Below, piece by piece: positions 15,601 through 47,230 of a stretch of 64,000 nt of DNA. The stretch lies in assembly GCA_963744145.1 (NCBI GenBank), contig CAVUSO010000001.1:5120001-5184000 (forward strand), given 5' to 3'. Position 1 is the first letter of the stretch; the number at the start of each line of letters is the position of its first letter. The stretch is from an uncultured cyanobacterium. GTDB lineage: Bacteria > Cyanobacteriota > Cyanobacteriia > Cyanobacteriales > CAWUOF01. The position numbers were made by a program, and so were the translations under genes. The notes under the pieces were generated by a model. The model was not told the origin of the DNA. It made no database searches and saw only the letters and a program-made list of their open reading frames with translations.

Positions 15601-16701
15601 ATGGAGCTTAAATCCCATCGATTTATTAAGTATTTTGGTTCACCGCAAGCAGATTTAATTTGCCAATTGGCTATTATTGAAAACTTTGCTGAACAAAAGG
15701 TAATTTTTGAAGAAGGTGAAATTCCGGATTTTTTATACTTGGTCTTAGCTGGACAAGTAGAATTTAGTAAGCGAGTTGGATTGGAACAATATCAAACAGT
15801 TGCTTTAGCAGGACCAAATGACTTTTTTGGTGAATTTGGTGTTTTAGATGGACAACCACGTAGTACCAGAGCATCTGCTAGTCAAGAAACTATTTTAGCA
15901 AAAATTCCCCGTGATAAGTTGATGGAAATTTTGCAACTTACCAATGGTAGTGTAGTTGTACAATTATTTCGCCATATTATTCAGCATCTGCGCTTAACTA
16001 CAGATCAATATGTTAATCAGATTGTGTACAAAGAAAAAATGGTATCTGTAGGAGAAATGGTTAATACAATTATTCACGATTTTAAAAGTCCTTTTACCAG
16101 TATTACATTAGCTAGTTCAATGCTGAAGGAAATCCATGCTGATGAAGAAACCGCTGAATGGTGCGATTTAATTCAAGCTCAGGTCAATCGAATGTTAGGA
16201 ATGGCTGAAGACTTATTAGCATTTACTAAAGGTAACTCCCATTTATATAAACAACCAGTCAATCTAGCTCTGTTGTTAGAGCAATTTAAAAAATTGAATG
16301 CTATTTATTTTAAAGATACTAAAATCGAATTTGCTTTGCAAGTGGATGATCAGCTCTGGGTGAATGGAGATGAAAGTAAGCTAATGCGGGTTTTGCAAAA
16401 TTTAGTGGGAAATGCGGTAGAATGTTTTGGGAATAGGGGTGGCAGAATTGACATTAAAATTTGGAAAGAGCAGGAATGGGTAGAAATTACGATTGCTGAT
16501 AATGGTCCGGGAATTCCTGAAGCAATTCGAGACCATTTATTTGAATCATTTGTTACCTATGGAAAACGTGGAGGAACAGGTTTAGGAACAGCGATCGCCA
16601 AATCGATTATTGATGCTCATTCTGGACAAATCTCCTTTCAATCACAGTTGGGAGAAGGTACAACATTTCACATTCGTTTACCAATATTAACCATTAACTA
16701 A
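15601..16701 (+). CDS. Sensor histidine kinase with N-terminal cyclic-nucleotide-binding domain
   Basis: FGEFGVLDGQPRS phosphate-binding cassette; IHDFKSP H-box; NLVGNA, DNGPG and GTGLG boxes. Confidence 0.92.
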   Translation: MELKSHRFIKYFGSPQADLICQLAIIENFAEQKVIFEEGEIPDFLYLVLAGQVEFSKRVGLEQYQTVALAGPNDFFGEFGVLDGQPRSTRASASQETILAKIPRDKLMEILQLTNGSVVVQLFRHIIQHLRLTTDQYVNQIVYKEKMVSVGEMVNTIIHDFKSPFTSITLASSMLKEIHADEETAEWCDLIQAQVNRMLGMAEDLLAFTKGNSHLYKQPVNLALLLEQFKKLNAIYFKDTKIEFALQVDDQLWVNGDESKLMRVLQNLVGNAVECFGNRGGRIDIKIWKEQEWVEITIADNGPGIPEAIRDHLFESFVTYGKRGGTGLGTAIAKSIIDAHSGQISFQSQLGEGTTFHIRLPILTIN

Positions 16702-22004: not shown

Positions 22005-24692
22005 TTGCAGATCCAGGGTAATCAAGCATTCCTGCTTTCCGATCCCGCAAAACTTTGGTTAGTTCAGTCGGGTAGCATTGCTTTGTTTGCGGTTAGAGTT
22101 AAGGATGGAGTAGTGATCTCAGCCCGTCGTTATTTATTTAGTAGCGAACCGGGAGAGTTAGTTTGTGGGATGGGTATTGGTGGAGAACAGAGCGATCGCG
22201 CTATTTTAGCTGTAGGAATTCCTGGAGATAGTGCTACTAATGGAACTACGGAAATTGTTGAGATTGAGCGGGAACAATGGCAAGATTTACAATCAGCAAA
22301 TCATGCTTATACAGTTACTTTAATTGCCACTTGGTGTCGAAAAATTCAGGGAGTATTTGCTGGAATTAGCGATTTAGAATTATCTAATATATCTGATGCA
22401 ATTATTCCAGATTGGGAATTGTTAATGGGAGAATTGTCTCAACTTCATCGGATTTTTTGGCAAGGGATTGATTTAATTGTAGCACAAGAAAAAGCAGTAG
22501 GATTGGTCAATTTACAAGCCAGAGAAAAATTTAATCAACAGCAATTAACCCAAGCTTTATCAGAATTAGAATCCTTACTACCTGATCAACAAAAATTTGT
22601 CGAAACTGAAACTGATGCTCAGGGTAGTAATCAAAATGAATATTTACCTTTATATCTGGCTGCTGTTGCTGTTGGTAAAGCTTTGGGAATTAAGATTTAT
22701 CTTCCAATTAACTTGAATCAAGATCCTTTAAATGCGATCGCTACAGCTTCTAGAATCAGGATTCGTCGCGTCTTATTAACAGATAATTGGTGGTCAAAAG
22801 ATTGTGGACCTTTATTAGCTTATACCCGTGATGGAAATCACCCGATCGCACTGTTACCTAGGACAGCAGGACGTTACCAAGCTTTTGATCCTGTGCAACA
22901 TATTCATCGACGAGTAGATGAAGAAATTGCCCTAACTTTGCTACCAATAGCTTATATGTTTTATTTGCCATTACCAGAGCGAAAATTAACAGCTTTTGAT
23001 TTAATTTTATTTGCATTGAAAAACCGTCGTAAAGATTTGTTGATGCTATTATGGTCTGGGATAGGAATTACCTTGCTGGGGATGTTTTTACCTCAAGCTA
23101 CCGCAATTTTGATTGATTTAGTAATTCCTGATGGTAAACGGAGATTGTTGATTGAAATTGGGTTAGGATTATTAGCTGGAGCGGTGGGGAGTTTGATTTT
23201 TCAATTAACTAGAGGACTCGCAATGATGCGATTAGAAATATTAGGAGATGCTGCTACTCAATCCGCAGCATGGGATCGGTTATTAAATCTTCCTGTACCT
23301 TTTTTCCGTCAATATTCAACGGGTGATTTACAATTGCGAGTATCAGCAATTAGTGCGATTCGTCATGAATTAGGTGGGGTGGCTTTGCAAACTTTATTTA
23401 TCGCTATTGTCACCTTACCAAATTTAGGATTATTATTTTATTATAACTGGGAATTAGGTCTAATTGCCGCAGCGATCGCACTAATAATTTTGGGAGTAAC
23501 TGGATTTTTAGGAATCGGGAATTTACGGATTACCAAACAATTGCAGAATTTGGAAGGAAAAATTTTAGGCTTAATGGTACAATTAATTAATGGAGTGGCA
23601 AAATTGCGGGTAGCAGGAGCAGAAGAACGGGCTTTTGCTAGGTGGAGTAAAGAATATAGTAAACAGCAAAGATTAAAGCTAAAAATCCAGCAATTAATCG
23701 ATATTTCCGTGGTTTTTAATCAGATATTAATCCCCATAGCGCAGGTATTTTTATTTGCCACAGCAGCAATATTAATCCGGGGAGGGGGTGGGTTATCACC
23801 GGGAATATTTTTAGCATTTAATACGGCTTTTGGGATCTTAATTGCTGGGATAACAGGGTTGGGAGATGTGAGTGTAAATTTTTTAGCAGCGATCGCCTTA
23901 TGGGAAAGAATTAAACCAATTATGCAAACAGAACCAGAGGTTGATCTAAATAAAACTGATCCTGGTCAGTTGTCGGGGAGATTGACCTTAAACCGCGTGA
24001 CATTTCGATATCGAAAACAGGGAGTAGCAGTATTAAATAATGTTAGTCTCAAGGTGGAACCAGGGGAATTTGTGGCATTAGTCGGTCCTTCTGGTAGTGG
24101 TAAATCGAGTCTATTTCGATTACTTTTAGGTTTTGAAACACCCCAATCAGGGGAAATTTATTATGATGGTCAGGATTTGCGAGGATTAAACATCCAAGCG
24201 GTACGGAGACAATTGGGTGTGGTGATTCAAAATAGTCGATTGAATACAGCTTCAATCTTTGATAATATCGCTGGAGGTGCATTAATTACCATGGATGACG
24301 CATGGGAAGCTGCTCATCAAGTTGGTTTAGCAGAAGAAATCGCAGCGATGCCCATGGAAATGCACACAGTGGTAAATGAGGGAGGAAATAATTTGTCAGG
24401 AGGACAGCGACAGAGATTATTAATTGCCAGAGCATTAGTATTAAAACCGAAAATTTTGTTATTAGATGAATCAACCAGTGCTTTGGATAATAAAACTCAA
24501 GCGATCGTCACCGAGAGTTTAGATAAATTAAAAGTCACCCGTGTGGTAATAGCTCATCGTCTGAGTACAATTCGCCAAGCCGATCGGATCTATGTGTTAC
24601 AATCTGGACAAATAGTAGAAGAAGGTAAATTTACAGATTTAATTGCTCAAAATGGTTTATTTGCACGTTTAATGAAACGGCAAATTGCTTAA
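22005..24692 (+). CDS. NHLM/NHLP bacteriocin-system ABC transporter, permease/ATP-binding subunit without peptidase
   Basis: IATASRIRIRRVLL, WWSKDCGPLL, AAWDRLLNLP, GPSGSGKS, LSGGQRQ; TTG start uncertain. Confidence 0.9.
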   Translation: MQIQGNQAFLLSDPAKLWLVQSGSIALFAVRVKDGVVISARRYLFSSEPGELVCGMGIGGEQSDRAILAVGIPGDSATNGTTEIVEIEREQWQDLQSANHAYTVTLIATWCRKIQGVFAGISDLELSNISDAIIPDWELLMGELSQLHRIFWQGIDLIVAQEKAVGLVNLQAREKFNQQQLTQALSELESLLPDQQKFVETETDAQGSNQNEYLPLYLAAVAVGKALGIKIYLPINLNQDPLNAIATASRIRIRRVLLTDNWWSKDCGPLLAYTRDGNHPIALLPRTAGRYQAFDPVQHIHRRVDEEIALTLLPIAYMFYLPLPERKLTAFDLILFALKNRRKDLLMLLWSGIGITLLGMFLPQATAILIDLVIPDGKRRLLIEIGLGLLAGAVGSLIFQLTRGLAMMRLEILGDAATQSAAWDRLLNLPVPFFRQYSTGDLQLRVSAISAIRHELGGVALQTLFIAIVTLPNLGLLFYYNWELGLIAAAIALIILGVTGFLGIGNLRITKQLQNLEGKILGLMVQLINGVAKLRVAGAEERAFARWSKEYSKQQRLKLKIQQLIDISVVFNQILIPIAQVFLFATAAILIRGGGGLSPGIFLAFNTAFGILIAGITGLGDVSVNFLAAIALWERIKPIMQTEPEVDLNKTDPGQLSGRLTLNRVTFRYRKQGVAVLNNVSLKVEPGEFVALVGPSGSGKSSLFRLLLGFETPQSGEIYYDGQDLRGLNIQAVRRQLGVVIQNSRLNTASIFDNIAGGALITMDDAWEAAHQVGLAEEIAAMPMEMHTVVNEGGNNLSGGQRQRLLIARALVLKPKILLLDESTSALDNKTQAIVTESLDKLKVTRVVIAHRLSTIRQADRIYVLQSGQIVEEGKFTDLIAQNGLFARLMKRQIA

Positions 24693-24696
24693 AACA

Positions 24697-27258
24697 CTAT
24701 TTAACTAAACATCCAGACGGGAACCAAGGTTGATAAGTTATAGTAACAGGAAGAGCCGTTAAAATCACTTGTCCTTTTTCGTTAACCATCCAGTTTTTAG
24801 CTTCAACAATTCGATCAGGTCTCGTTATTTGCGAAGGCATAAATTTTTTATTTTGGGGGATAGCGTGAGAAATTTGTTCTTCTGTTAATGGATTTGTGGG
24901 TGGGCTGAGAACTTCCCAATTAGACAATGTTGATTCAGCCGTAATCACATCGTGAGGATTGGTAGGTAAACCACCACTACCAGTAAATGTAAATTGATTT
25001 TTATATCCATCTACATGAGAACAACTTTTATAAATTTGATTGTTGATATTGAGAACTTTCTGGGAGATATTTAAAATTCCTTTACTAGGGTCCAGATCAG
25101 GAGTTTTAATCTGCACCACCCCATTGAATTTCAAACCTGCTGCCGAACTAGCCGTGATTTGTTCACTCGGTGTAGGCGCAAAAACAGATTTAGCATTAAT
25201 TAAAATATTACCACCATAACCTTGGAAAGCATTAGCAGTAATTGTACTATTTTCCAAAAGGGTAATACTGCCAGTAGGTAAATCAAGAGTTATATTACCA
25301 CCAACCCCAGTGCCACCAGCTTCAGCAGATAATTTACTGTGGTGACGTAAAAGTAATTGTTGTGCCGCTAAATCAATATTACCACCACCAGCACTAGCAG
25401 CACTAGCTGTAACTGTGGCACCCTGATCAATAATTAATTTGTTAGTGCTAATTCGTAAATCACCAGCCATACCACTCCCTTGACTTTCAACGAACAATCT
25501 ACTGGGAACGGAAAGACCATTGTTATCAATACCTGTACCAGTTACTTCGATCGAATTCGAGGCTTTTATAGTTAAATCTCCACCCATCCCACTAGTACCA
25601 GTAATTGTCCCCGCTGAAACTTTAGCCCCACCCTGGATACTTAAGCTCCCAGTAGTAATTGTCACACTGCCACTATTACCAGTAGCACCTTGGTCAACTT
25701 GAGAAAATAAACCAGAAGGATATAGACCATCGGCTGATCTACCAACTACTTCAATAGAACCAGTAGCATTAACAGCTAAGTTTCCACCTTGACCAATTCC
25801 AAAAGTGCCAACTTCGACCTGAGAACCATTTTGCAGCAGTAAATTTCCTGTATTGATAGCCACGTTTCCTCCATTTCCTTGGCTACCAGGATTACTTACA
25901 GCAGATATATAGCTCCCCCCCATTAGTTGAATATCTGAGGCATTTATGGTCAATTTAGCAGCATTACCGTTAGCAAAAGTAGAAGTAGTAATCTCAGGCT
26001 GTCCTTGCATGATTAACTGTTTGGTATTGACAGTAAGATTACCAGCATCTCCATTATCCGTCGTGGTCGCAAATAAACCAGTTGAGCCATCGCCCATTAT
26101 TTGCACCGAATCACTAGCATTAACAATCAGGTCACCAGCAGTTCCCGAACTGTAAGTGCTAGTTGATGCAACTCCAGAGTTTTGAATCACCAATTTGCTG
26201 GTATTAATGGTTAAATTGCCACCATGTCCGCTCCCTTCTTTCCCGATCCTGGGGTTAATACCAGCAGATGATCCAACTACCTCAGTTAACAAAGCGCTGG
26301 GAAAAGTTCCATCGGCAGATTGTCCGATTATTTCTACTAAATCGGTGGTGTTGACTGTTAAATTGCCTCCCGGTTTAGTTCCTAATGTAAGAGATATAAT
26401 TTCAGAACCATCAGTGAGACTCAATCGTTGTCCTTGGACATTGATATTACCCCCACCATCTCCACTCGTATCGACGATCGCTCCCTGAGATAGTTGGATG
26501 TCACCGAAATTTTTTATCCCGGCATAATTGAAAAGATAGCCATTTCCATTTACCCCCAGAGTAACAGTACCTGCGACCGCTACACTGCCCAGTTCAATTT
26601 GTCCAGATTCTGCGGTCAGATTACCACCTGTTAAAGTTAAGTTACCACCGAGCAGAGCTAAGGTTTTTCCTAGAGGGACTTGGAGTCCTACTACTTGGTT
26701 ATTGCTATTGGTAGTTTGGGATTGATTGATGATTGAGCCAGGATTAGCCCCAAATTGTAGCCCAATCGGCATATTTATGCTTAATAGTGGGGCTTGAGGC
26801 TTGATCGCACTAAACTCAGTCCCATTGGCAAATTTTAAACTGTTGGCAGTTGTGGCAAAAAATGATCCACCTATATTTAAGCTAGCATGAGGACCAAAAA
26901 TGATGCCATTAGGATTAATCAAAAATAAGTTAGCTGGGACATTCGCTTTGAGTAAACCATCAAGGTTGGAAGGAGAGCTACCTGTAACCCTAGTAATTAT
27001 ATTCTGAACGTCAGTAGAATTATTGAAAAAAACTGTATTACCAGTAGGAACGGAAAATTGACTAAAGCTGTGGAATAGGTTTCCTCCAACTGTAGTACCA
27101 CCAGTAATATGACTGATATTTCCTTGGGGGGTAACGATAGAATTGACTGGAAGGCTGGTATCGGGAATAATTGTTTGGGGAAATGAGGGGGTGCCTATCG
27201 CTAACCAGACCCATGTTAGGCTATTGGCAATCCACACAAATTTAATGCCTGGTTTCAT
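24697..27258 (-). CDS. Filamentous haemagglutinin N-terminal-domain (TpsA-like) exoprotein
   Basis: NLFHSFSQFSV, ANLFLINPNGIIFG, Gly/Asn-rich beta-helix repeats, FTFTGSGGLP and IVEAKNW C-terminal motifs; ATG at 27258 preferred. Confidence 0.92.
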   Translation of the reverse strand: MKPGIKFVWIANSLTWVWLAIGTPSFPQTIIPDTSLPVNSIVTPQGNISHITGGTTVGGNLFHSFSQFSVPTGNTVFFNNSTDVQNIITRVTGSSPSNLDGLLKANVPANLFLINPNGIIFGPHASLNIGGSFFATTANSLKFANGTEFSAIKPQAPLLSINMPIGLQFGANPGSIINQSQTTNSNNQVVGLQVPLGKTLALLGGNLTLTGGNLTAESGQIELGSVAVAGTVTLGVNGNGYLFNYAGIKNFGDIQLSQGAIVDTSGDGGGNINVQGQRLSLTDGSEIISLTLGTKPGGNLTVNTTDLVEIIGQSADGTFPSALLTEVVGSSAGINPRIGKEGSGHGGNLTINTSKLVIQNSGVASTSTYSSGTAGDLIVNASDSVQIMGDGSTGLFATTTDNGDAGNLTVNTKQLIMQGQPEITTSTFANGNAAKLTINASDIQLMGGSYISAVSNPGSQGNGGNVAINTGNLLLQNGSQVEVGTFGIGQGGNLAVNATGSIEVVGRSADGLYPSGLFSQVDQGATGNSGSVTITTGSLSIQGGAKVSAGTITGTSGMGGDLTIKASNSIEVTGTGIDNNGLSVPSRLFVESQGSGMAGDLRISTNKLIIDQGATVTASAASAGGGNIDLAAQQLLLRHHSKLSAEAGGTGVGGNITLDLPTGSITLLENSTITANAFQGYGGNILINAKSVFAPTPSEQITASSAAGLKFNGVVQIKTPDLDPSKGILNISQKVLNINNQIYKSCSHVDGYKNQFTFTGSGGLPTNPHDVITAESTLSNWEVLSPPTNPLTEEQISHAIPQNKKFMPSQITRPDRIVEAKNWMVNEKGQVILTALPVTITYQPWFPSGCLVK

Positions 27259-27419
27259 TGGCAATTCAACCTCTGACAAGTTTAAAAATTTTTCTATTGC
27301 GTAAAAATACTGATAGATCAAAGAGCCTACTAATTTTTATAGTAGCCCTTGGATCAATAAACTAATTAGGTTTTTTAAAAAAATAAATTAAAGACTTGAT
27401 GAAGATTGCTCTAAGTGTA

Positions 27420-27449
27420 TTGACAAGGGTAAAATGACTTAGGTATGGT
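27420..27449 (+). promoter_or_regulatory. Putative sigma70-type promoter of the precursor/lanM operon
   Basis: TTGACA-18 bp-TATGGT; TGACAAGGGT repeated at 27421 and 27452. Confidence 0.4.
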
Positions 27450-27577
27450 AATGACAAGGGTTAGTTGTAAGAACAACTTCTAGCCGACAACCACTTATCC
27501 GCAATTTTTCTTAAGGGTAAAGGTTAGAATGTTGTCAGTGATTATTATTTGATTAAATCTAATGGGAGACTAAAACA

Positions 27578-27715
27578 ATGTCAGCACAAAAAGAGTCAAA
27601 AAAATCAAAAAGTACCAAGCCAGAAACTGCTAAACCAGATTCCTCAGAGCTATCAATGGTAGAGCTAGATACTATTGCTGGTGGTAGAGCAGCACAAAGC
27701 GCCAAAAGCCTTTGA
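27578..27715 (+). CDS. Unannotated 45-aa double-glycine-leader peptide precursor (core RAAQSAKSL)
   Basis: MSAQKESKKSKSTKPETAKPDSSELSMVELDTIAGG|RAAQSAKSL; GGGAG RBS upstream; ELSxxELxxIAGG is the C39-cleavage consensus; directly upstream of lanM-like gene. Confidence 0.88.
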   Translation: MSAQKESKKSKSTKPETAKPDSSELSMVELDTIAGGRAAQSAKSL

Positions 27716-27815
27716 TGGCGATCGCAATTCGCCAAAAATAGTTTAGAACAGCTCTTAAATCAGAATAATTATAAACTGAGAGAGAAGCAGATAAAGATTG
27801 TTTTTGACCTTTTTC

Positions 27816-27857
27816 AGGGGGGACAAGCAAAAAGTTTGCTGTCCCCTCTCGGTTTTT
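27816..27857 (+). terminator. Intercistronic hairpin between precursor and lanM-like gene
   Basis: AGGGGGGACAAGCAAA-AAG-TTTGCTGTCCCCT stem followed shortly by a T tract. Confidence 0.65.
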
Positions 27858-27944
27858 CATTTTCAGCAGTTGAGAGGGTAACAGCGAAGGTGAAAATGAG
27901 GTAATATCTTCTTTTGGCTAGCAATTGCAGTTTTGGGTGGTGCC

Positions 27945-30900
27945 ATGAGTGATCGTCCCATACACTCTCAAGCAGAATTAATCAAAATCCTTGAACGTGC
28001 CAGCACCCTCAAGGAACGTTTGGGTGGAGAATTTATTAGCGATCGCGAACAAATTAAAGAAGATCAAATTAATTGCTATTTGGAAGAGTGGTGCCAAGTT
28101 GTTGGGGCAGGAGATTTAGAAAGATTTGAAAAACGCTTATCCTGGGATGGGTTAAATTTAGAGAGGGTATTACCCATTCTGACGGCTGTCCGTTTAAAAG
28201 ATGACCAAAATCTGCCCCACTGGTTAGAAACTTTAACCAATGGTCTGAAAGCTGCAACTTTGTTCGATCTCAATCAGCCATCTGACTATCCTCAACTTCC
28301 ATTTGTCGAGGTCTTTTTACCCTTAATTAATTTAGCTCGAACTAAAGTAATTGCTAAAACTGGTTCAAGTTATGAATTAATGACAAAAACTGCTCATCAA
28401 AACCTAGAATTCAGTCTCCTCGAATTTTTAGTACATTTAGGCTCGCGATCGCTGCAATTAGAATTTGCGGTTTTTTGTGGGGGTATTCAAACTAATAACA
28501 GTCTCTCGGATTTAGCGAGTGAAAGTAATAAAGCACAATATCTAAAATTTGTCAAGGGGTTATTAGAGGGAGGATTACTACTTTTTTTCCAAGAATATAG
28601 TGTCTTAGGGAGGTTGATTGCTACCACTGTAGATTTATGGGTAGATACCACCGCAGAATTTATGGTCAGATTAGCAACAGATTGGACAGAAATTCAGCAA
28701 ACTTTTCAACCGAAAAAGGAACTAGGAAAAGTCATCGCGATCGCACCTAATCTATCTGAGCGACATCACCAAGGACGGACAGCACTCGAACTGACCTTTG
28801 CTGCGGGTTTAAAACTAATTTATAAACCGAAAAACTTAGGGTTAGACATCGCTTATATTAACTTACTCAACTGGTTTAATCAAGAAAAGTTACCATTAAA
28901 GTTCAAATTAATCAAAATTCTCAACCGGGATGATTATGGTTGGGTAGAATTTATCGAAAATCTTCCCTGTCTTAATCAAGAAGCAGCACAACGCTATTAT
29001 CAACGGGCAGGAATGTTATTAAGTTTAATGTATCTTTTAGATGCAAGGGAATGTAACTGCGAAAATATTATCGCTAACGGAGAATATCCAGTTTTACGCG
29101 AACCAGAAACCTTAATGCACCCTCGATTTCAAGAAGATGAGTTACCAAATGAAGATCGAGGAGTTCAGGTTCTTGCTAATTATCAGCTTGGTAATTCTGT
29201 GATCCGAACTGGTTTCTTACCCCGTTGGAAAATAAATTCTAGAGAACAATATTATGACGATAGTGGATTATGGGGAATGGGTGAGGGAAGAACAGCAAAA
29301 GCGAATTTACCTAAATTAGGCAATACCTATTTATCACCAACTGATTACCTGGAAGAAATCGTAAATGGTTTTCAGGTAATGTATCTATTTTTAATCAAAA
29401 AGAGAGACAAATTAATTACCTCCAATAGTCCATTAGCAGAAATAGCACAACAATCAGTACGCTTTCTTTTTCGGACTACTAAAGTCTATAATTTTATCTT
29501 AAATAAAATCCTCCAACCCAAATTTATCCGGACTGGGATTGATTGGAGTATTCAGCTTGATATTTTGGACAAAGCTCTCCTTGATTCGCAAACAGTCCAT
29601 CCCTGTTGGAGTCTCGCTAAAGCAGAAAAGAAATCTCTGGAATTAATGGATATTCCTATATTTACAGTCAAGGGAAATAGTCGTGATTTAATCATTGCTC
29701 CTGGTGAAAAGATTGAGAATTTTTTTAATCAATCGAGCGAGCAGAATGTGATTGATAAATTCCACCAATTACATGAGCGAGATTTAAACAAGCAAATCGA
29801 AATTATTCGTAATTCTATTTATATCCTAATTGCTCATCAAACTCAACCAAAAATAAATAATAGTTCCCATCACCATTCTGGGAAAAAGTCAGGAATTTTA
29901 ACAGCAAAACAACTAATCGCAGAAGCAGTAATAATTGGTGAAGATTTAAAAAAACGGGCGATTATTTCTACCCAAAAGGGTATGATTTGGATGGGATTAA
30001 ATCAGCTAGCTAAAGCTGAATATTTCCAATTAAATCCCCTTGGATATGACCTTGACAATGGGATTGCAGGAATAGCATTATTTTTCGCAGCTTTAGCAAA
30101 AGTTAGTGATCAAAAATGGGGAGAATTTGCTTTAGCAACATTGCAACCTTTACGTCAAAATTTACAGAGTCATAACCTAGATGGAAATATCTTCCAGAAC
30201 ATGGGTATTGGTGGTGCGAAAGGATTGGGTGCGATTATTTATGTATTGGTAAGAGTGAGTGAATTTCTCTCAGCACCAGACATGATCAAAGATGCTAAAA
30301 AAGTAGCTGCTCTGATTACCAAAGATAAAATTACTAGCGATCGCTATTTAGATATTTTTTCTGGGTCAGCTGGAGCAATTTTAGGATTATTAGCTTTATA
30401 TGAGATTGAGCGAGATCAAAAAGTTTTAGAAACTGCCATAGCTTGTGCCCATAATATATTATTCCATCTATTTAAAAGCAATTCTAGTTTCAGTAGAGGG
30501 AAATTTTTAAATTCCAAATTGCCCATCAGTTTTTATCAGGGTTATACCGGAATCGCTTATGCTTTACTACGATTATATAAAATTACTAATCATGTCAATT
30601 TTTTAGAAGCAGCAAGTGAAATTATCATAGACTGCAATAATTCCAGGCAAAATTTACACCATATTTGTGATTATTATCTTGGTGATTTAGCCCAGATATT
30701 AACTGATAATAAGAAGGAAATCAAGCAAAAATTTAAAACCGGATTAAAACCCAATGGAGAATTAAAATTACAGGGTGTGGATAATCTCTATGAGGGGAAT
30801 TTTGGGATGATCGAGATTGCGTTACTTACGAGTCAAAAGCTGAATCTTCATGAGGGTTTAGAAATTGCTAACAAACAAGCAAGTTGGGTAATAAATAGAG

Positions 30901-31049
30901 CAAAACATACAGGTGGGTTTAAATTGTTTACTAACCTTCCCACCGATGCGTATACCCCCAGTTTTTTTTCAGGAAGTGCGGGAATTGGTTATGAACTTTT
31001 GCGATTAGCTGCTCCAGAATTATTTCCTTCCGTGATCCTCTGGGAATAA
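27945..31049 (+). CDS. lanM: Class II lanthipeptide synthetase (LanM) homologue with degenerate active sites
   Basis: LanM architecture (LIYKPK, YGWVEFI, YYQRAG, RFLFRTT, LanC-like barrel, GSAGIGYELLRL...PSVILWE); catalytic motifs altered (ECNCEN, LREPET, FYQG, LYEG). Confidence 0.88.
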   Translation: MSDRPIHSQAELIKILERASTLKERLGGEFISDREQIKEDQINCYLEEWCQVVGAGDLERFEKRLSWDGLNLERVLPILTAVRLKDDQNLPHWLETLTNGLKAATLFDLNQPSDYPQLPFVEVFLPLINLARTKVIAKTGSSYELMTKTAHQNLEFSLLEFLVHLGSRSLQLEFAVFCGGIQTNNSLSDLASESNKAQYLKFVKGLLEGGLLLFFQEYSVLGRLIATTVDLWVDTTAEFMVRLATDWTEIQQTFQPKKELGKVIAIAPNLSERHHQGRTALELTFAAGLKLIYKPKNLGLDIAYINLLNWFNQEKLPLKFKLIKILNRDDYGWVEFIENLPCLNQEAAQRYYQRAGMLLSLMYLLDARECNCENIIANGEYPVLREPETLMHPRFQEDELPNEDRGVQVLANYQLGNSVIRTGFLPRWKINSREQYYDDSGLWGMGEGRTAKANLPKLGNTYLSPTDYLEEIVNGFQVMYLFLIKKRDKLITSNSPLAEIAQQSVRFLFRTTKVYNFILNKILQPKFIRTGIDWSIQLDILDKALLDSQTVHPCWSLAKAEKKSLELMDIPIFTVKGNSRDLIIAPGEKIENFFNQSSEQNVIDKFHQLHERDLNKQIEIIRNSIYILIAHQTQPKINNSSHHHSGKKSGILTAKQLIAEAVIIGEDLKKRAIISTQKGMIWMGLNQLAKAEYFQLNPLGYDLDNGIAGIALFFAALAKVSDQKWGEFALATLQPLRQNLQSHNLDGNIFQNMGIGGAKGLGAIIYVLVRVSEFLSAPDMIKDAKKVAALITKDKITSDRYLDIFSGSAGAILGLLALYEIERDQKVLETAIACAHNILFHLFKSNSSFSRGKFLNSKLPISFYQGYTGIAYALLRLYKITNHVNFLEAASEIIIDCNNSRQNLHHICDYYLGDLAQILTDNKKEIKQKFKTGLKPNGELKLQGVDNLYEGNFGMIEIALLTSQKLNLHEGLEIANKQASWVINRAKHTGGFKLFTNLPTDAYTPSFFSGSAGIGYELLRLAAPELFPSVILWE

Positions 31050-31093
31050 AAGAGGTTATAATTAGAAATATTCAGGTTGCGAAATTATTCTTT

Positions 31094-32122
31094 ATGAAAA
31101 TTATGACAGTACCTCTGTTCCAATTCCAGGGAATGAATAATACTGACATTAATTGGTTAGTCAGTATTGGTAAAAGAGAAAAATTTGCCCCAAACACCAT
31201 CTTGATTCAGGAAGGACAAATAGTAAATAGTATTTATTTTATCCTAGTCGGTGGATTAAGTATTTCTCTAGCAGGATTAAATGGAGAAAATCAGGAAATC
31301 GCTAGATTAGGAAATGGTGAAATTGTCGGAGAAATGTCTTGGATGGATCATCACCAGTCCCCCATCACAGCATTAGTGGTCGATTCCGCAGAAATTCTGG
31401 AGATTACCCATGAAAAATTACAGATAAAAATCAAACAGGACCACGGATTTGCAGCTCGGTTTTATCAAGCAATGTCAATCGTTTTTTCTGATCGACTCCG
31501 AGGGATTTCTGATTTGTTAGCACATAGTAAGATTGTCCCTGGACAACCGTTGCGAAAAGTGCTGTTAGTTTTTAATGAATTAATCGATCGCGATATTGAT
31601 TGGATAATTGAATTTGGTCACAAAGAGAGATTTTCTCCTGGTCAAGTTTTAATTGAACAAGGTAAATCTTTAGATGCTATATATATTTTGTTGAAAGGAA
31701 ATATCGGCATCTATATTAATATTATAAATGATCATGAAAAAATTAGTAAAGAAGTTGCTCGCTCTGCTAGTGGTGAAATTTTAGGAGAAATGTCCTTTAT
31801 TACTGGTGCGAATGCTTCAGCAACAGTAAAAATAATTGAAACTTCGGAAGTTTTAGTGTTACCGTGCAAGTTTTTATCAGCAAAATTGCAAAAAGATTTA
31901 GGATTTTCTTCCCGATTTTATCGAGCGATCGCGATAGTTCTATTAGATCGACTTAAAGATCGACTCAAACAAAGTGGTTATGCTCGAATTGCTTACGATC
32001 AAGCTAAACATCTAAATGAAGAGCAGGAATATCAGGATGAAATTGACCTTGATGCTTTAGATTATGTTTCTTTAGCTGGGTTAAAATTTGATTGGTTACT
32101 CAAACGCTTACAAGCAAATTAA
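31094..32122 (+). CDS. Tandem cyclic-nucleotide-binding-domain protein
   Basis: Two repeats of DIxW...LIxxG...GEIxGEMS...ARFYxA; no HTH. Confidence 0.88.
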   Translation: MKIMTVPLFQFQGMNNTDINWLVSIGKREKFAPNTILIQEGQIVNSIYFILVGGLSISLAGLNGENQEIARLGNGEIVGEMSWMDHHQSPITALVVDSAEILEITHEKLQIKIKQDHGFAARFYQAMSIVFSDRLRGISDLLAHSKIVPGQPLRKVLLVFNELIDRDIDWIIEFGHKERFSPGQVLIEQGKSLDAIYILLKGNIGIYINIINDHEKISKEVARSASGEILGEMSFITGANASATVKIIETSEVLVLPCKFLSAKLQKDLGFSSRFYRAIAIVLLDRLKDRLKQSGYARIAYDQAKHLNEEQEYQDEIDLDALDYVSLAGLKFDWLLKRLQAN

Positions 32123-32133
32123 AGTAGACATAT

Positions 32134-33573
32134 ATGCTTGAAAAAAAGCGTAAAATATTCCGGAAAGAGTCTTTAGAACGATTATCATCTCCGGAAAGAT
32201 TAGATCGACTAATGCAAGTCATTAGTCCGAAGGGTTGGTTAAATTTAGGAGCTTTTACTTGTCTGATTTTATTAGGATTAGGTTGGAGTGTACTCGGAAA
32301 AATCCCGATTACTGTGACTGGTAAAGGAGTCATTGTCAATCCTCGTCAGATGATAGAATTACAATCACCAATTACGGGACAGTTACAGAAATTAAATATC
32401 AAAGTAGGAGATTGTTTTAAGAAAGGAGATATTTTGGCTGAATTAGCACAACCGGAATTACAAAAACAACTGCAACAACAACAAAATAATCTGGCTGAAT
32501 TACAAAAACAAGATCGACAATTAAGTGCGATCGCAACAGCTAGAATTGAGATAGAAAAGCAAAATTTAGCCCAGCAAAGACAAAATAAACTGCAACGTCA
32601 AAGAGATCAGGGGGAATTAGCGATCGCAGTACGTGAGCAAGAAGTAAAAGCAATCCAAAAAGAGCGAGAAAATCTCAAACAACAGCTAGCAAATAATCAG
32701 GGATTAACACCGATATTAGCACAAAGATTAAAAATTCGCCAAGATTTAAAAATTGAAGGTGCGGTTTCAACTGATAATCTGTTAGAAGCAGAACAAGCTT
32801 ATCGGAATAATCTGAATGAAATTGCTAATTTACAAGCTCAAATTCAGGAACTAGAAGTTAGAGAAATTAAAGCTAATCAAACCTATAAAGACACCCAAAG
32901 TCAAATTAGTGATTTAGACTTCCAATTACAACAGCTCAATAGTCAAGAAAAAAACCTGATTCAACAAAATTTAGAAGCGATCGCAACTCGGAGTAATAAA
33001 ATCCAAGAAGTAAAACGAGCGAGCGCTCAACTCGAACTGCAATTGCAACATAATAGTAAAATTATTTCACCCCAAACTGGCTGTATGCTAGAAATGACGA
33101 TGAACAATGGACAATTTATTACACCTGGGACTAAACTAGGTACGATCGCAACGCAAGATTTAACTAATAAAATTGTCAGTTTAACTTATTTTCCCATTAA
33201 AGATGGTAAACAAATTAAACCGGAGATGACGATCCAAATTACTCCTGACACTGTACCCCGAGAGCGATTTGGAGGAATTATCGGTAATATTGTTTCCATT
33301 ACCCCATTTCCGATTACCAAAGAAGAAATATCGAGAATTGTGGGTAATCCGGAAATTGCTCAATCCCTCGTCTTTGAAGGAGGACAAATTCAAGTTATGG
33401 CCGAAATGAAAAGGAATTATAGTAATATTAGTGGTTATCAGTGGTCTTCTTCCCATGGTCCAGATTTGCAAATTACCACTGGAACTACTACTACAGCTCG
33501 AGTAACTGTAGGAGAACGGGCACCTATCACCTTTATTTTACCATTTTTGAGAGCTAATACTGGAATTTATTAA
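32134..33573 (+). CDS. NHLM bacteriocin-system secretion protein (HlyD-family membrane fusion protein)
   Basis: IFRKESLERLSSPERLDRLM, single TM, long coiled coil, RERFGGI, GYQWSSS. Confidence 0.93.
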   Translation: MLEKKRKIFRKESLERLSSPERLDRLMQVISPKGWLNLGAFTCLILLGLGWSVLGKIPITVTGKGVIVNPRQMIELQSPITGQLQKLNIKVGDCFKKGDILAELAQPELQKQLQQQQNNLAELQKQDRQLSAIATARIEIEKQNLAQQRQNKLQRQRDQGELAIAVREQEVKAIQKERENLKQQLANNQGLTPILAQRLKIRQDLKIEGAVSTDNLLEAEQAYRNNLNEIANLQAQIQELEVREIKANQTYKDTQSQISDLDFQLQQLNSQEKNLIQQNLEAIATRSNKIQEVKRASAQLELQLQHNSKIISPQTGCMLEMTMNNGQFITPGTKLGTIATQDLTNKIVSLTYFPIKDGKQIKPEMTIQITPDTVPRERFGGIIGNIVSITPFPITKEEISRIVGNPEIAQSLVFEGGQIQVMAEMKRNYSNISGYQWSSSHGPDLQITTGTTTTARVTVGERAPITFILPFLRANTGIY

Positions 33574-35871
33574 TATTTAGATTTTGCCAGGATGATGGAA
33601 AAGCTCCTCAACTATCTTAGGTCTTTTTATCTCCTATTGCTCAGGTTCAAAACCAAAATTCAAACATCTTTATTCCCCAACTTCTACCAGTATCGAAAAC
33701 GGGAAAGAACTCCGACAGTATTACAAATGGAAGCAGTAGAATGTGGTGCTGCTGCTTTAGGAATTATCCTAGGTTACTACGGAAGAATTGTCCCATTAGC
33801 AGAATTACGCAAAGAATGTGGAGTCTCAAGAGATGGTGCTAAAGCTTCTAATATTCTCAAAGCTGCTAAAAATTATGGACTCACCGGTAAAGGATTTAAA
33901 AAAGAGCTAGAAGCAATCAAAGAAATTCGCTGTCCTTATATTGTATTTTGGAATTTTAATCATTTTTTAGTAGTAGAAGGATTTAGTAAAAAACGAGTTT
34001 ATCTAAACGATCCAGCGACGGGACCTCGTCCTGTTACTTGGGAAGAATTTGACGAATCTTACACCGGAGTCATCCTGGTGATGGAACCAGGAGTAGACTT
34101 TGTTAAAGGTGGACGTAAACCTAATATTATCTTCGCATTATGGGAAAGATTACGGGATTCATTAGGAGCGATCGCTTACTGTTTGTTAGCAGGATTACTA
34201 TTAGTTATTCCTGGATTAGCTATCCCAGCTTTTACCCAGATATTTGTTGATCAAATTTTAATTCAAAACCGACAAGAATGGTTAAATCCCTTGCTTTTGG
34301 GTCTGAGTGCGACAGCTTTAATTCGGGGATTATTAGCTACATTGCGGTTTAAATATCTCCGCTATTTAAAAATTAAACTAGCTGTCACCATGTCGAGTGA
34401 ATTTATTTGGCATATTTTGCGTTTACCGATTAGTTTTTATGCTCAAAGATTTGCAGGGGAAATTGCCAATCGAGTCCGGATTAATGATCAAGTTGCTGAT
34501 ATCCTATCAGGTCAATTAGCGACAACTATTATTGATATGATTATGATGATTTTTTATGGAATTGTCATGAGTGAATATGATTTAATTTTGACCATGATCG
34601 GGATTTTTTTCGCTAGTATTAATTTAGTCGCTTTAATGCAACTATCCCGTTGGAGAGTAGATGCTAATTTACGGTTAGGACAGGAAGAAAGCAAAGCATC
34701 AGGATTTGCGATCGCGGGATTGCAAAGTATTGAAACTATAAAAGCATCTGCACTAGAATCAGACTTTTTTTCCCGGTGGTCTGGTTATTATGCTAAAACT
34801 ATCAACGCTCAACAAGAACTAGACCTGCAAAACCAAGCATTGGGAACTTTACCAATCTTTCTAAATGCAATTACCTCGATTTTAATCTTAGTAATTGGTG
34901 GGTTACGAGTCATAGAAGGTAATTTGAGTATTGGGATGTTAATTGCTTTTCAAAGTTTGATGGAAAGTTTTCTAGAACCAATTAACCGTTTCGTTAACTT
35001 GGGGAGTAAAATCCAAGAACTAGAAGGTGATTTAAGTCGTCTAGATGATGTTCTCAACAACCCCATTGATCCGCAAATGAAATTAATTGAGAACCAAACC
35101 CAATTATCCGGAGCTGCTAGATCGACCACAACATTGATGGACGATTATCGGTTACAAGGTTATGTGGAACTGCGAAATATTTGCTTTGGGTACAGTCCAG
35201 TTGATGCACCTTTAATAGAAAATTTTAATCTCCAAATCTACCCCGGACAACGAGTAGCATTAGTAGGAGCAAGTGGTTCAGGAAAATCGACAGTTGCTAA
35301 ATTAATTAGCGGATTATACAATCCTTGGGAAGGAGAAATTCTGTTTGATGGAATACTCCGGGAAGAAATTCCCCGAGCAGTCTTAATTAATTCGATCGCT
35401 ATGGTAGATCAAGAGATTTTATTATTTGCTGGTACGATTCGCGAAAATTTAACTTTGTGGGATAATTCGATTCCCGATCGATATTTAATCCAAGCTTGTC
35501 AAGATGCAGCGATCGCTGATGTAGTAATATCTTTAGAAGGTGGTTATAATGCTTACCTACTGGAAAGTGCAGGAAATTTAAGTGGTGGTCAACAACAGCG
35601 ATTAGAAATTGCTCGTGCTTTGGTAAATAATCCCAGGATTCTGATTATGGATGAAGCAACCAGCGCTCTTGATCCGGAAACTGAAAAAATTATTGACCAA
35701 AACCTGCGACGACGCGGTTGTACTTGTATTATTGTCGCTCATCGACTTACCACAATTCGTGATTGTGATTTAATTATGGTATTTGAAAAAGGCAAAGTAG
35801 TTCAACAGGGAACCCACGAAGAATTATGGCAAGAACAAGGTATATATGCAGAATTAATTAGCAGCGAATGA
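33428..35871 (+). repeat. 2444-bp direct repeat, copy 1 (hlyD 3' end + peptidase-ABC gene)
   Basis: Colinear with 44787-47230 at a constant offset of 11359. Confidence 0.95.
33592..35871 (+). CDS. NHLM bacteriocin-system ABC transporter with C39 peptidase, copy 1
   Basis: QMEAVECGAA catalytic Cys, NHFLVV His, LNDPA, GASGSGKS, LSGGQQQ, DEATSALD. Confidence 0.95.
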   Translation: MMEKLLNYLRSFYLLLLRFKTKIQTSLFPNFYQYRKRERTPTVLQMEAVECGAAALGIILGYYGRIVPLAELRKECGVSRDGAKASNILKAAKNYGLTGKGFKKELEAIKEIRCPYIVFWNFNHFLVVEGFSKKRVYLNDPATGPRPVTWEEFDESYTGVILVMEPGVDFVKGGRKPNIIFALWERLRDSLGAIAYCLLAGLLLVIPGLAIPAFTQIFVDQILIQNRQEWLNPLLLGLSATALIRGLLATLRFKYLRYLKIKLAVTMSSEFIWHILRLPISFYAQRFAGEIANRVRINDQVADILSGQLATTIIDMIMMIFYGIVMSEYDLILTMIGIFFASINLVALMQLSRWRVDANLRLGQEESKASGFAIAGLQSIETIKASALESDFFSRWSGYYAKTINAQQELDLQNQALGTLPIFLNAITSILILVIGGLRVIEGNLSIGMLIAFQSLMESFLEPINRFVNLGSKIQELEGDLSRLDDVLNNPIDPQMKLIENQTQLSGAARSTTTLMDDYRLQGYVELRNICFGYSPVDAPLIENFNLQIYPGQRVALVGASGSGKSTVAKLISGLYNPWEGEILFDGILREEIPRAVLINSIAMVDQEILLFAGTIRENLTLWDNSIPDRYLIQACQDAAIADVVISLEGGYNAYLLESAGNLSGGQQQRLEIARALVNNPRILIMDEATSALDPETEKIIDQNLRRRGCTCIIVAHRLTTIRDCDLIMVFEKGKVVQQGTHEELWQEQGIYAELISSE

Positions 35872-35931
35872 AATACAATCTTTATATAATTTGAATAAAT
35901 CCCCAAGAATTGCATCATTTAGGACAAAACC

Positions 35932-36534
35932 ATGACACAAGTTAACTTATCCCAAATCATTGCAGTCAATATCCCACCCATCCTAACACTGAAAATTACC
36001 CACGAACAATTTATTGAGTTAACGCGAGTGAACCGAGACTTACAATTAGAAAGAACTAGTACAGGAGACTTGATTATTATGCCACCAACAGGAGGTACTA
36101 CAGGTAATAGAAATTTAGATATTGAAGGACAACTCTGGTTATGGAACCGTCAAACAAAACTTGGTAAAACATTTAACTCTTCGACAGGTTTCCATCTCCC
36201 TAATGGTGCCAATCGTTCCCCTGATGCAGCTTGGGTAAGTCAAGACCGATGGGACACACTCACCAGAGAGCAACAAGATGAATTTGTCCCTCTTTGCCCT
36301 GATTTTATAGTAGAATTGCGTTCCAAAAGCGATAATATGGAACCACTACGAGCCAAAATGAAAGAATACATAGAAAATGGTACTCGTTTAGGTTGGTTGA
36401 TTGACAGAAAAAACAAAAAGGTGGAAATTTATCGACCCGATCGGGATGTGGAAGTCCTTAATCATCCGACAACTTTGTCTGGTGAAGATATCTTACCTGG
36501 GTTTATGTTAGATTTAACAGAAATATGGCAATAA
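35932..36534 (+). CDS. Uma2-family (DUF820) endonuclease
   Basis: LERTSTGDLIIMPP, RSPDAAW, PLCPDFIVELRS, LGWLID, LSGEDILPGF. Confidence 0.93.
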   Translation: MTQVNLSQIIAVNIPPILTLKITHEQFIELTRVNRDLQLERTSTGDLIIMPPTGGTTGNRNLDIEGQLWLWNRQTKLGKTFNSSTGFHLPNGANRSPDAAWVSQDRWDTLTREQQDEFVPLCPDFIVELRSKSDNMEPLRAKMKEYIENGTRLGWLIDRKNKKVEIYRPDRDVEVLNHPTTLSGEDILPGFMLDLTEIWQ

Positions 36535-44786: not shown

Positions 44787-47230
44787 TTAGTGGTTATCAA
44801 TGGTCTTCTTCTCATGGTCCAGATTTGCAAATTACCACTGGAACTACTACTACAGCTCGAGTAACTGTAGGAGAACGGGCACCCATCACCTTTATTTTAC
44901 CATTTTTGAGAGCTAATACCGGAATTTATTAATATTTAGATTTTGCCAGGATGATGGAAAAGCTCCTCAACTATTTTAGGTCTTTTTATCTCCTATTGCT
45001 CAGGTTCAAAACGAAAATTCAAACATCTTTATTCCCAAACTTAAACCAGTATCGAAAACGGGAAAGAACTCCGACACTATTACAAATGGAAGCAGTAGAA
45101 TGTGGTGCTGCTGCTTTAGGAATTATTCTAGGTTACTATGGAAGAATTGTCCCATTAGCAGAATTACGCAAAGAATGTGGAGTATCAAGAGATGGTGCTA
45201 AAGCTTCTAATATTCTCAAAGCTGCTAAAAATTATGGACTTACCGGTAAAGGATTTAAAAAAGAGTTAGAAGCAATCAAAGAAATTCGCTGTCCTTATAT
45301 TGTATTTTGGAACTTTAATCACTTTTTAGTGGTAGAAGGATTTAGTAAAAAACGAGTTTATTTAAACGATCCAGCGACGGGACCTCGTCCTGTTACTTGG
45401 GAAGAATTTGACGAATCTTATACCGGAGTCATCCTGGTGATGGAACCAGGAGCAGACTTTGTTAAAGGTGGACGTAAACCTAATATTATCTTTGCATTAT
45501 GGGAAAGATTACGGGATTCATTAGGAGCGATCGCTTACTGTTTGTTAGCAGGATTACTATTAGTTATTCCTGGATTAGCTATCCCAGCTTTTACCCAGAT
45601 ATTTGTTGATCAAATTTTAATTCAAAACCGACAAGAATGGTTAAATCCCTTGCTTTTGGGTCTGAGTGCGACAGCTTTAATTCGGGGATTATTAGCTACA
45701 TTGCGGTTTAAATATCTCCGCTATTTAAAAATTAAACTAGCTGTCACCATGTCGAGTGAATTTATTTGGCATATTTTGCGTTTACCGATTAGTTTTTATG
45801 CTCAAAGATTTGCAGGGGAAATTGCCAATCGAGTCCGGATTAATGATCAAGTTGCTGATATCCTATCAGGTCAATTAGCGACAACTATTATTGATATGAT
45901 TATGATGATTTTTTATGGAATTGTCATGAGTGAATATGATTTAATTTTGACCATGATCGGGATTTTTTTCGCTAGTATTAATTTAGTCGCTTTAATGCAA
46001 CTATCCCGTTGGAGAGTAGATGCTAATTTACGGTTAGGACAGGAAGAAAGCAAAGCATCAGGATTTGCGATCGCGGGATTGCAAAGTATTGAAACTATAA
46101 AAGCATCTGCACTAGAATCAGACTTTTTTTCCCGGTGGTCTGGTTATTATGCTAAAACTATCAACGCTCAACAAGAACTAGACCTGCAAAACCAAGCATT
46201 GGGAACTTTACCAATCTTTCTAAATGCAATTACCTCGATTTTAATCTTAGTAATTGGTGGGTTACGAGTCATAGAAGGTAATTTGAGTATTGGGATGTTA
46301 ATTGCTTTTCAAAGTTTGATGGAAAGTTTTCTAGAACCAATTAACCGTTTCGTTAACTTGGGGAGTAAAATCCAAGAACTAGAAGGTGATTTAAGTCGTC
46401 TAGATGATGTTCTCAACAACCCCATTGATCCGCAAATGAAATTAATTGAGAACCAAACCCAATTATCCGGAACTGCTAGATCGACCACAACATTGATGGA
46501 CGATTATCGGTTACAAGGTTATGTGGAACTGCGAAATATTTGCTTTGGGTACAGTCCAGTTGATGCACCTTTAATAGAAAATTTTAATCTCCAAATCTAC
46601 CCTGGACAACGAGTAGCATTAGTAGGAGCAAGTGGTTCAGGAAAATCGACAGTTGCTAAATTAATTAGCGGATTATACAATCCTTGGGAAGGAGAAATTC
46701 TGTTTGATGGAATACTCCGGGAAGAAATTCCCCGAGCAGTCTTAATTAATTCGATCGCTATGGTAGATCAAGAGATTTTATTATTTGCTGGTACGATTCG
46801 CGAAAATTTAACTTTGTGGGATAATTCGATTCCCGATCGATATTTAATCCAAGCTTGTCAAGACGCAGCGATCGCTGATGTAGTAATCTCTTTAGAAGGT
46901 GGTTATGATGCTTACTTACTGGAAAGTGCAGGAAATTTAAGTGGTGGTCAACAACAGCGATTAGAAATTGCTCGTGCTTTGGTAAATAATCCCAGGATTC
47001 TGATTATGGATGAAGCAACCAGCGCTCTTGATCCGGAAACTGAAAAAATTATTGACCAAAACCTGCGACGACGCGGTTGTACCTGTATTATTGTCGCTCA
47101 TCGACTCACTACAATTCGTGATTGTGATTTAATTATGGTATTTGAAAAAGGAAAAGTAGTTCAACAGGGAACCCACCAGGAATTATGGGAAGAACAAGGT
47201 ATATATGCAGAATTAATTAGCAGTGAATAA
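44787..47230 (+). repeat. 2444-bp direct repeat, copy 2
   Basis: Matches 33428-35871; begins TTAGTGGTTATCA inside hlyD and ends at the ABC stop codon. Confidence 0.95.
44951..47230 (+). CDS. NHLM bacteriocin-system ABC transporter with C39 peptidase, copy 2
   Basis: 759 aa; 9 substitutions versus copy 1; all motifs intact. Confidence 0.95.
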   Translation: MMEKLLNYFRSFYLLLLRFKTKIQTSLFPNLNQYRKRERTPTLLQMEAVECGAAALGIILGYYGRIVPLAELRKECGVSRDGAKASNILKAAKNYGLTGKGFKKELEAIKEIRCPYIVFWNFNHFLVVEGFSKKRVYLNDPATGPRPVTWEEFDESYTGVILVMEPGADFVKGGRKPNIIFALWERLRDSLGAIAYCLLAGLLLVIPGLAIPAFTQIFVDQILIQNRQEWLNPLLLGLSATALIRGLLATLRFKYLRYLKIKLAVTMSSEFIWHILRLPISFYAQRFAGEIANRVRINDQVADILSGQLATTIIDMIMMIFYGIVMSEYDLILTMIGIFFASINLVALMQLSRWRVDANLRLGQEESKASGFAIAGLQSIETIKASALESDFFSRWSGYYAKTINAQQELDLQNQALGTLPIFLNAITSILILVIGGLRVIEGNLSIGMLIAFQSLMESFLEPINRFVNLGSKIQELEGDLSRLDDVLNNPIDPQMKLIENQTQLSGTARSTTTLMDDYRLQGYVELRNICFGYSPVDAPLIENFNLQIYPGQRVALVGASGSGKSTVAKLISGLYNPWEGEILFDGILREEIPRAVLINSIAMVDQEILLFAGTIRENLTLWDNSIPDRYLIQACQDAAIADVVISLEGGYDAYLLESAGNLSGGQQQRLEIARALVNNPRILIMDEATSALDPETEKIIDQNLRRRGCTCIIVAHRLTTIRDCDLIMVFEKGKVVQQGTHQELWEEQGIYAELISSE

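Follow-up and report, generated by a model that had tools for sequence, protein, structure and literature searches.

Among the LanM-type enzymes of cyanobacteria, NpnM of Nostoc punctiforme acts on Cys-free cores, lacks cyclase activity and has an intact kinase. In the npn system, the reductase NpnJA yields D-Ala (PMC12328550). Cys-free cores beside cyanobacterial LanMs are already in print. The nearest clusters to the one analysed here are the group IV (LanM) and maturase-less bacteriocin clusters of cyanobacteria (Haft et al. 2010, PMC2887384; Wang et al. 2011, PMC3140520); Table S3 of the latter paper holds 290 precursors and may already include the build that we describe. Cyanobacterial double-glycine peptides with non-antibiotic roles have also been described, namely EbfG1–4 of Synechococcus elongatus (PMC4997328) and nostolanthin (10.64898/2026.08.14.744816).

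We analysed a 64,000-nucleotide stretch of DNA (hereafter the window) from an uncultured cyanobacterium, positions 5,120,001–5,184,000 of contig CAVUSO010000001.1 in the 7.7-Mb, 96% complete assembly GCA_963744145.1 (genome G000). Like the group IV and maturase-less clusters, the locus joins an exporter trio of TIGR03794, TIGR03796 and TIGR03797 proteins to a lanM gene (PMC2887384, PMC3140520), and its precursor, small, unannotated and of the double-glycine type, falls within the 28–164 aa given by Wang et al. Unlike the clusters of those two papers, it has a 36-aa leader that is of neither NHLP nor Nif11 type, a 9-aa Cys-free core and a LanM that is degenerate at both active sites. It also differs from the npn system, as the kinase is degenerate too and no LanJ-like gene was recognised within 22005–36534, the stretch covered by that search. 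EbfG1–4 and their transporter PteB share with it the pairing of double-glycine small proteins with a C39 transporter, whereas the mature forms there are 6–7 kDa, against under 1 kDa here, and no LanM takes part there (PMC4997328). Short-leader, tiny Cys-free precursors are known elsewhere; the distinctive part of this locus, which the original prediction overlooked, is a LanM degenerate at both sites. Our main reading, to which we give a probability of roughly 45%, is that the locus makes an unmodified cationic 9-mer, exported by the neighbouring C39/HlyD proteins and likely serving as a cell-to-cell signal, with the adjacent LanM predicted to be inactive.

The original prediction was of a 45-aa double-glycine precursor with a ribosome-binding site (RBS), an ATG and a Lys/Ser-rich leader, and the sequence confirms it. 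The 45-codon open reading frame (ORF) is real: it occupies 27578..27715 on the plus strand, with the RBS GGGAG at 27564..27568 (+), 9 nt 5' of the ATG at 27578. Its short double-glycine leader (36 aa, 27578..27685, +) is rich in Lys and Ser and ends in ELSMVELDTIAGG; the remainder of the frame (27686..27715, +) consists of the core RAAQSAKSL (9 aa, 27686–27712) and a TGA stop (27713–27715). With Arg and Lys the core is cationic, and it has two Ser and no Cys, so that it lacks the combination of Cys with Ser or Thr from which a thioether ring is made.

We ranked all 22,812 ATG-started small ORFs of the whole genome with a position matrix derived from 16 double-glycine leaders taken from elsewhere than this genome, excluding loci that had been fetched with this peptide as query. 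The precursor came first, with 26.4 bits versus 18.2 for the runner-up, and its score was not reached in any of 5,000 resamplings of the intergenic sequence; an alternative matrix of 25 motifs that included the loci fetched with the peptide left the rank unchanged. Against Pfam and NCBIfam the precursor gave sub-threshold matches only (PF10439, E 0.071; NF038167, E 0.014). TIGR03793 and TIGR03798, which describe NHLP and Nif11 leaders of about 70–90 aa, did not match this peptide with its 36-aa leader, as expected from the claim that the leader is not of the long type. A contig of sequencing run X1, possibly the source sample, spans 27445–28095 with 0 differences, including identical letters throughout the core and stop, and thus the stop is not an assembly slip. 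Runs X2 and X3 contained next to none of the stretch.

The precursor opens a same-strand series of genes. Downstream of it lie a full-length LanM homologue (27933..31049, +), a tandem cNMP-binding protein (TIGR03896; 31094..32122, +), an HlyD adaptor of the NHLP system (TIGR03794; 32134..33573, +) and a C39 peptidase ABC exporter (TIGR03796; 33592..35871, +). A partner ABC subunit without peptidase (TIGR03797; 22005..24692, +) is situated beyond a gene for a TPS-domain (haemagglutinin-like) protein (24697..27321, −) that is divergent from the precursor and has counterparts in some related exporter loci. All of the TIGR assignments were above cut-off. Photosystem II genes at 10295–12722 mark the window as cyanobacterial, and a 204-aa protein at 39279–39893 (−) has a signal-like N-terminus, tandem Tyr-Gln-Gln-Pro-Pro repeats and no Pfam match.

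The linked exporter carries an intact catalytic triad (Cys51, His124 and Asp140) with the spacing of the LahT triad, and it is accompanied by the HlyD adaptor, as in double-glycine systems. LahT protease reads Leu-12, Leu-7, Ile-4 and the Gly-Gly-type positions of the leader (rules from PMC6363468). The precursor presents these residues as Leu25, Leu30, Ile33 and Gly35/Gly36, thereby having Gly-Gly at −2/−1, where Gly-Ala is the other accepted pair, and hydrophobic residues at −4, −7 and −12. Because the triad is kept and the leader has the residues read by LahT, cleavage and export are likely, in support of the claim that the leader suits the exporter at 33592, and the precursor is very probably a real C39 substrate.

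The 3' end of hlyD and the whole C39 exporter gene are also present as a recent duplicate (44787..47230, +), of which 44787–47228 (2,442 bp) is 98.5% identical to 33428–35869; it is located 11 kb downstream, after toxin-antitoxin-like genes, with the gene copy at 44951. The X1 contigs showed variant letters at 33759–34003, as expected from two exporter copies. A quick exporter tree gave no placement of the window's exporter, and we therefore claim no order of events.

No sensor kinase, response regulator or receptor gene was recognised in 22005–36534. A cNMP-domain histidine kinase, at 15601–16701, lies outside that cluster stretch.

The LanM homologue scored 705.8 bits with TIGR03897, against a cut-off of 304, and it has the DUF4135 and LanC-like domains of a full-length class II synthetase such as CylM (PDB 5DZT) or LicM2 (PDB 6ST5). 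Alignment to CylM revealed that it differs from that enzyme at the kinase (dehydratase) site. Residues 276, 373 and 390, corresponding to CylM Asp252, Asp347 and Asp364, are all Glu, and residue 375, corresponding to His349, is Asn; the three Glu codons have identical letters in the X1 contigs. We compared these columns with 262 homologues, which are the top matches listed from LanM searches and not the whole family. Asp was present at the three columns in 255, 260 and 262 of them, respectively, and Glu in 4, 0 and 0. Among these listed matches none (0/262) had the triple-Glu state, and the Glu-type LanM is known from one genome. Across 15 conserved Asp columns, three were Glu, ten were kept, one was deleted and one was Asn. 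Four of the ten catalytic columns (CylM D252, H254, K274, D347, H349, N352, D364, R506 and T512, together with E366, which we take to be catalytic) had been lost, three by Asp-to-Glu and one by His-to-Asn replacement, compared with 9 of the 106 further columns that are invariant in the N-terminal domain (Fisher p 0.014). Thus, the set of kinase and elimination residues is not intact. In addition, a 25-column deletion removes a conserved N-x-D-x-M stretch from the dehydratase domain.

Mutagenesis of CylM indicates what such changes may mean. Dehydration was abolished by D347A and by D364A, a little of it remained with His349Ala, and phosphate elimination is the task of Asp252; the mutants described carry Ala, not Glu (PMC4550811). 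A changed catalytic-base or metal-binding Asp is, moreover, the usual criterion for a pseudokinase (PMC12599244). Our literature search, which left most subscription papers outside its reach, brought up no account of a LanM that is catalytically dead or degenerate at both sites, and none of Asp-to-Glu mutants of LctM. Two other LanM homologues, P0154 and P0257, have a degenerate kinase and intact cyclase ligands, so the dehydratase has been lost more than once.

The cyclase site of LanM is also degenerate. The Cys911/His912 pair of CylM is replaced by Tyr953-Glu954, in place of the Cys-Cys of homologues as well (the two codons fall between the listed X1 pieces), and Gln869 stands for the lost His of the GFSHG motif. 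Deletions break the WCHGAPG stretch and disrupt the region of CylM Cys875; Cys912 of LanM may align with C875, with the motif around it deleted. At least two of the three zinc ligands (CylM C875, C911 and H912) are consequently gone. The zinc site lies within the C-terminal 208 residues; of the 60 columns that are invariant there, 25 have been lost, compared with a median of 2 in homologues. By analogy with the CylM mutants, in which the replacements were Ala and not Glu, we predict that LanM, degenerate at both sites, is inactive.

The genome holds one LanM and one LanC-like gene. A second LanM, a second LanC-like gene and a HopA1-type lyase had no match in the 96% complete assembly, which has two YcaO genes elsewhere, and none of its two Nif11 and two NHLP-like matches has a double-glycine core. 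Structure prediction gave a pLDDT of 35 for a single-sequence fold of LanM and a score of 0.04 for a complex of LanM residues 1–640 with the precursor, neither of which is informative. The dehydratase domains are the main leader-binding site of LanM, and a loop that grips long leaders has been described (PMC12537861). We considered loss of this loop here; it has 26 residues, compared with a median of 28, and three hydrophobic residues, with three or fewer also found in 12 of 119 homologues, which is too weak a difference to claim.

We found no homologue of the peptide in a set of 5.8 billion proteins, searched at lengths 24–79 only. The 400 other genomes of the order gave weak matches (best E 0.03) and no true homologue. 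Likewise, genome and metagenome contig collections contained no close LanM relative; the best match had 45–49% identity, and none exceeded about 49%. Without close relatives, the peptide and the Glu pattern are seen in this genome only, which counts against the main reading.

The same genome encodes four further short-leader Cys-free precursors, three at a second NHLP exporter, with 8-, 8- and 12-aa cores, and one orphan with an 18-aa core, while a fifth short-leader precursor, with Cys, adjoins a third NHLP exporter. At G000:C1:6188112-6189446 (L062:4113-5447), a paralogous precursor lies tail to tail with a Y1_Tnp (IS200-like) gene. At G000:C1:7135225-7135392 (−; L063), a short precursor of the Gly-Ala type with a Cys-rich core lies upstream of a MauE-like gene and the third NHLP exporter, which has a fragmented hlyD. 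NHLP-like small proteins with a Cys end and without Gly-Gly occur at G000:C1:4954470-4957126 and C1:4554859, one of them directly 5' of a YcaO gene.

Precursors of this build recur in other cyanobacteria. Thirteen of 90 distinct double-glycine ORFs from collected cyanobacterial loci combined a leader of at most 55 aa with a core no longer than 12 aa; all but one of the 13 were Cys-free, and seven of those 12 were cationic. As the 90 ORFs had been chosen partly for such features, these counts show recurrence and not frequency. Taken with the paralogues in the genome, they indicate that the original prediction overstated how unusual a tiny Cys-free core behind a short leader is. A scan of 47 loci with a fixed 9-codon pattern let in Trp codons and out-of-frame matches, and we used it to find examples only, not for counts. 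In four loci (L193, L195, L199 and L201), tiny Cys-free cores are located between two NHLP ABC genes, and the stretch fetched around them contains no LanM-like gene.

A TIGR03896-like match was present in 61 of 401 genomes, and a LanM-like gene in three (L100, L111 and L113) of the 20 loci fetched. L113 has a LanM whose motifs are intact, immediately preceded by a precursor with a Cys/Ser core of 9 aa; the same exporter set follows a few genes beyond. In Scytonema tolypothrichoides (L170), leaders of 41–42 aa with Cys cores adjoin an intact LanM. Among selected ORFs of the 20 loci scanned, pairs of CHASE2-cyclase and DUF928 genes were found in or beside the TIGR03896/NHLP exporter loci L099, L103 and L104, where no double-glycine precursor was seen within 20 kb. 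TPS-domain genes occur in or beside exporter loci L105, L108, L111 and L112, and L111 also has a CHAT protease gene. Short-leader precursors in L114, L205, L206 (genome G304) and L210 (genome G273) carry repetitive cores rich in Lys/Asp/Tyr/Gly or His, which is suggestive of matrix or metal-binding peptides.

Upstream of the precursor, a sequence scan detected a promoter-like site (27417..27461, +), putative in function, with a perfect −35 box, TTGACA, at 27420 and an overlapping 14-nt direct repeat. The two copies of the repeat are 13/14 identical and 31 nt apart, and they form the sole such pair in the chromosome. Such a repeat arises in 26 of 3000 shuffles and in 185 of 3000 windows drawn at random from the genome, so its rarity by chance is modest. 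It is possibly a regulator site; the paralogous precursors do not share it, and the precursor promoter has no NtcA-type site.

A strong hairpin had been placed after the precursor. A strong hairpin does exist (z −3.2, and −23 kcal/mol when the outer helix is included), but it lies about 100 nt past the stop, between the precursor and lanM (27816..27850, +), and leads into a T-rich run. At the stop itself there is an ordinary, weak hairpin whose 6-bp stem surrounds a HIP1 site (z −1.2). A consensus terminator scan called no terminator, and the strong hairpin is not a genomic repeat; it is likely a leaky terminator or an mRNA stabiliser.

Under the main reading, the hairpin would terminate leakily, and more precursor than enzyme would be made. 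The C39 domain would cut after Gly36, the ABC pair and HlyD would export the 9-mer without modification, and the pseudo-LanM has probably been kept for a non-catalytic job, as a leader chaperone or as a scaffold for export. The loss of catalytic residues from the two active sites of LanM is the strongest argument for an unmodified core, and we consider it rather probable that the peptide is indeed unmodified. We lean, less firmly, towards a signal and away from a toxin or matrix component. The small size of the peptide, the cNMP-binding gene in the cluster, the CHASE2-cyclase/DUF928 or TPS genes near related exporters and the non-antibiotic precedents of EbfG and nostolanthin all favour a signal; with no receptor gene identified in the cluster, a pheromone role is something that we only infer. 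The locus resembles a one-time lanthipeptide cluster that passed into the maturase-less state common in related cyanobacteria and kept its enzyme shell.

A more tentative proposal, possible but on the whole doubtful, is that LanM has been repurposed: the Asp-to-Glu changes would have been selected, and the protein would act as a non-catalytic chaperone, scaffold or sensor, or with new Glu chemistry, for the 9-residue signal. The chance that drift alone makes all three changes Asp to Glu is 0.003–0.016 under neutrality, or 0.056 when estimated from the replacements seen in the alignment. Retention of LanM, which the main reading shares, is supported by its reading frame, which runs for 1038 codons with no stop or frameshift, despite eight multi-codon deletions relative to the consensus (a count that depends on the alignment). 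In a simple neutral model, the frame stayed free of stops in 0.037 of runs with 5% of codons changed and in 0.0045 with 8% changed, both percentages being assumed values. The open frame points to selection on the protein, and so does the mostly conservative character of the N-terminal changes outside the catalytic residues. The precedent for a scaffold is mixed, because the findings on nisin conflict: NisB/NisC increase nisin secretion about tenfold and inactive NisC H331A gave no rescue (PMC7378552), whereas an earlier report cited in that paper found that inactive NisC rescued secretion.

It is less probable, and we regard it as unlikely, that the same unmodified 9-mer is an antimicrobial or a surface or matrix component instead of a signal. 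Cationic cores are typical among the Cys-free tiny cores (the seven of 12 noted above), the leader weakly resembles bacteriocin families through its sub-threshold PF10439 and NF038167 matches, and the lack of an identified receptor in the cluster fits either of these roles. On the other hand, a linear 9-mer whose only hydrophobic residues are Ala and Leu is short for a membrane-active bacteriocin, and no immunity-like gene was recognised within 22005–35871. The matrix version can point to the EbfG proteins, which work in biofilm formation, but their mature forms are far larger, at 6–7 kDa (PMC4997328).

Somewhat less likely again is a LanM that is alive, in which the three Glu residues form a re-tuned site that phosphorylates or dehydrates the two Ser of the core, giving a linear dehydroalanine or phosphoserine peptide without rings. 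All three substitutions being Asp to Glu, which keeps the carboxylate, and the retention of catalytic Lys298, Asn378, Glu392, Arg514 and Thr516 leave room for residual or altered LanM chemistry. Haft et al. anticipated that cores lacking Cys would remain dehydrated when next to a LanM (PMC2887384), and homologues without zinc ligands but with an intact kinase exist (for example, P0076, P0083 and P0087). Those cyclase-less homologues, however, retain Asp at all three kinase sites. In this LanM, His349 has been lost as well, the 25-column deletion hits the N-x-D-x-M stretch, and the changed Asp residues are of the kind by which pseudokinases are usually recognised (PMC12599244).

We think it improbable that the locus is a decaying relic, with lanM drifting without function and a residual or silent peptide gene. 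The terminal branches of LanM are long (0.71–0.96, versus medians of 0.11–0.16), its deletions are many, the enzyme is a singleton, and the exporter has recently been partly duplicated among toxin-antitoxin-like genes. Long branches are equally expected from the absence of close relatives, though, and the 1038 open codons, the mostly conservative non-catalytic changes of the N-terminal domain, and the intact RBS, −35 box, leader motif and every exporter gene all run counter to decay. Finally, it is very improbable that a longer core, perhaps with Cys at the codon now read as TGA (27713), was recently cut short by a nonsense change. The frame does stay open for 62 codons past the TGA, as in 142 of 2,612 long genes (5.4%), but this extension reaches −0.16 bits per codon, less than the 5th percentile for coding DNA (−0.03), on a measure that performs weakly with short genes (two true paralogues give −0.13). 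The extension also lacks Cys and passes through the hairpin, the cores of the paralogues are 8–18 aa long, and the cyclase is degenerate regardless.

Many cyanobacteria carry NHLP-type exporters and tiny Cys-free double-glycine peptides. The locus offers a cheap test case: its 9-mer can be made synthetically, the protease of its exporter is intact, and it includes a LanM. Because LanM passes TIGR03897 even though no ring can form, genome miners would mislabel the cluster as a lanthipeptide cluster. If LanM is active with three Glu residues, the chemistry of the LanM kinase fold would be widened; if it is dead but needed, a RiPP synthetase would have a non-catalytic role. Should the repurposing proposal hold, the locus would present a doubly dead pseudo-LanM and a snapshot of maturase-less tiny-peptide exporters arising from lanthipeptide clusters.
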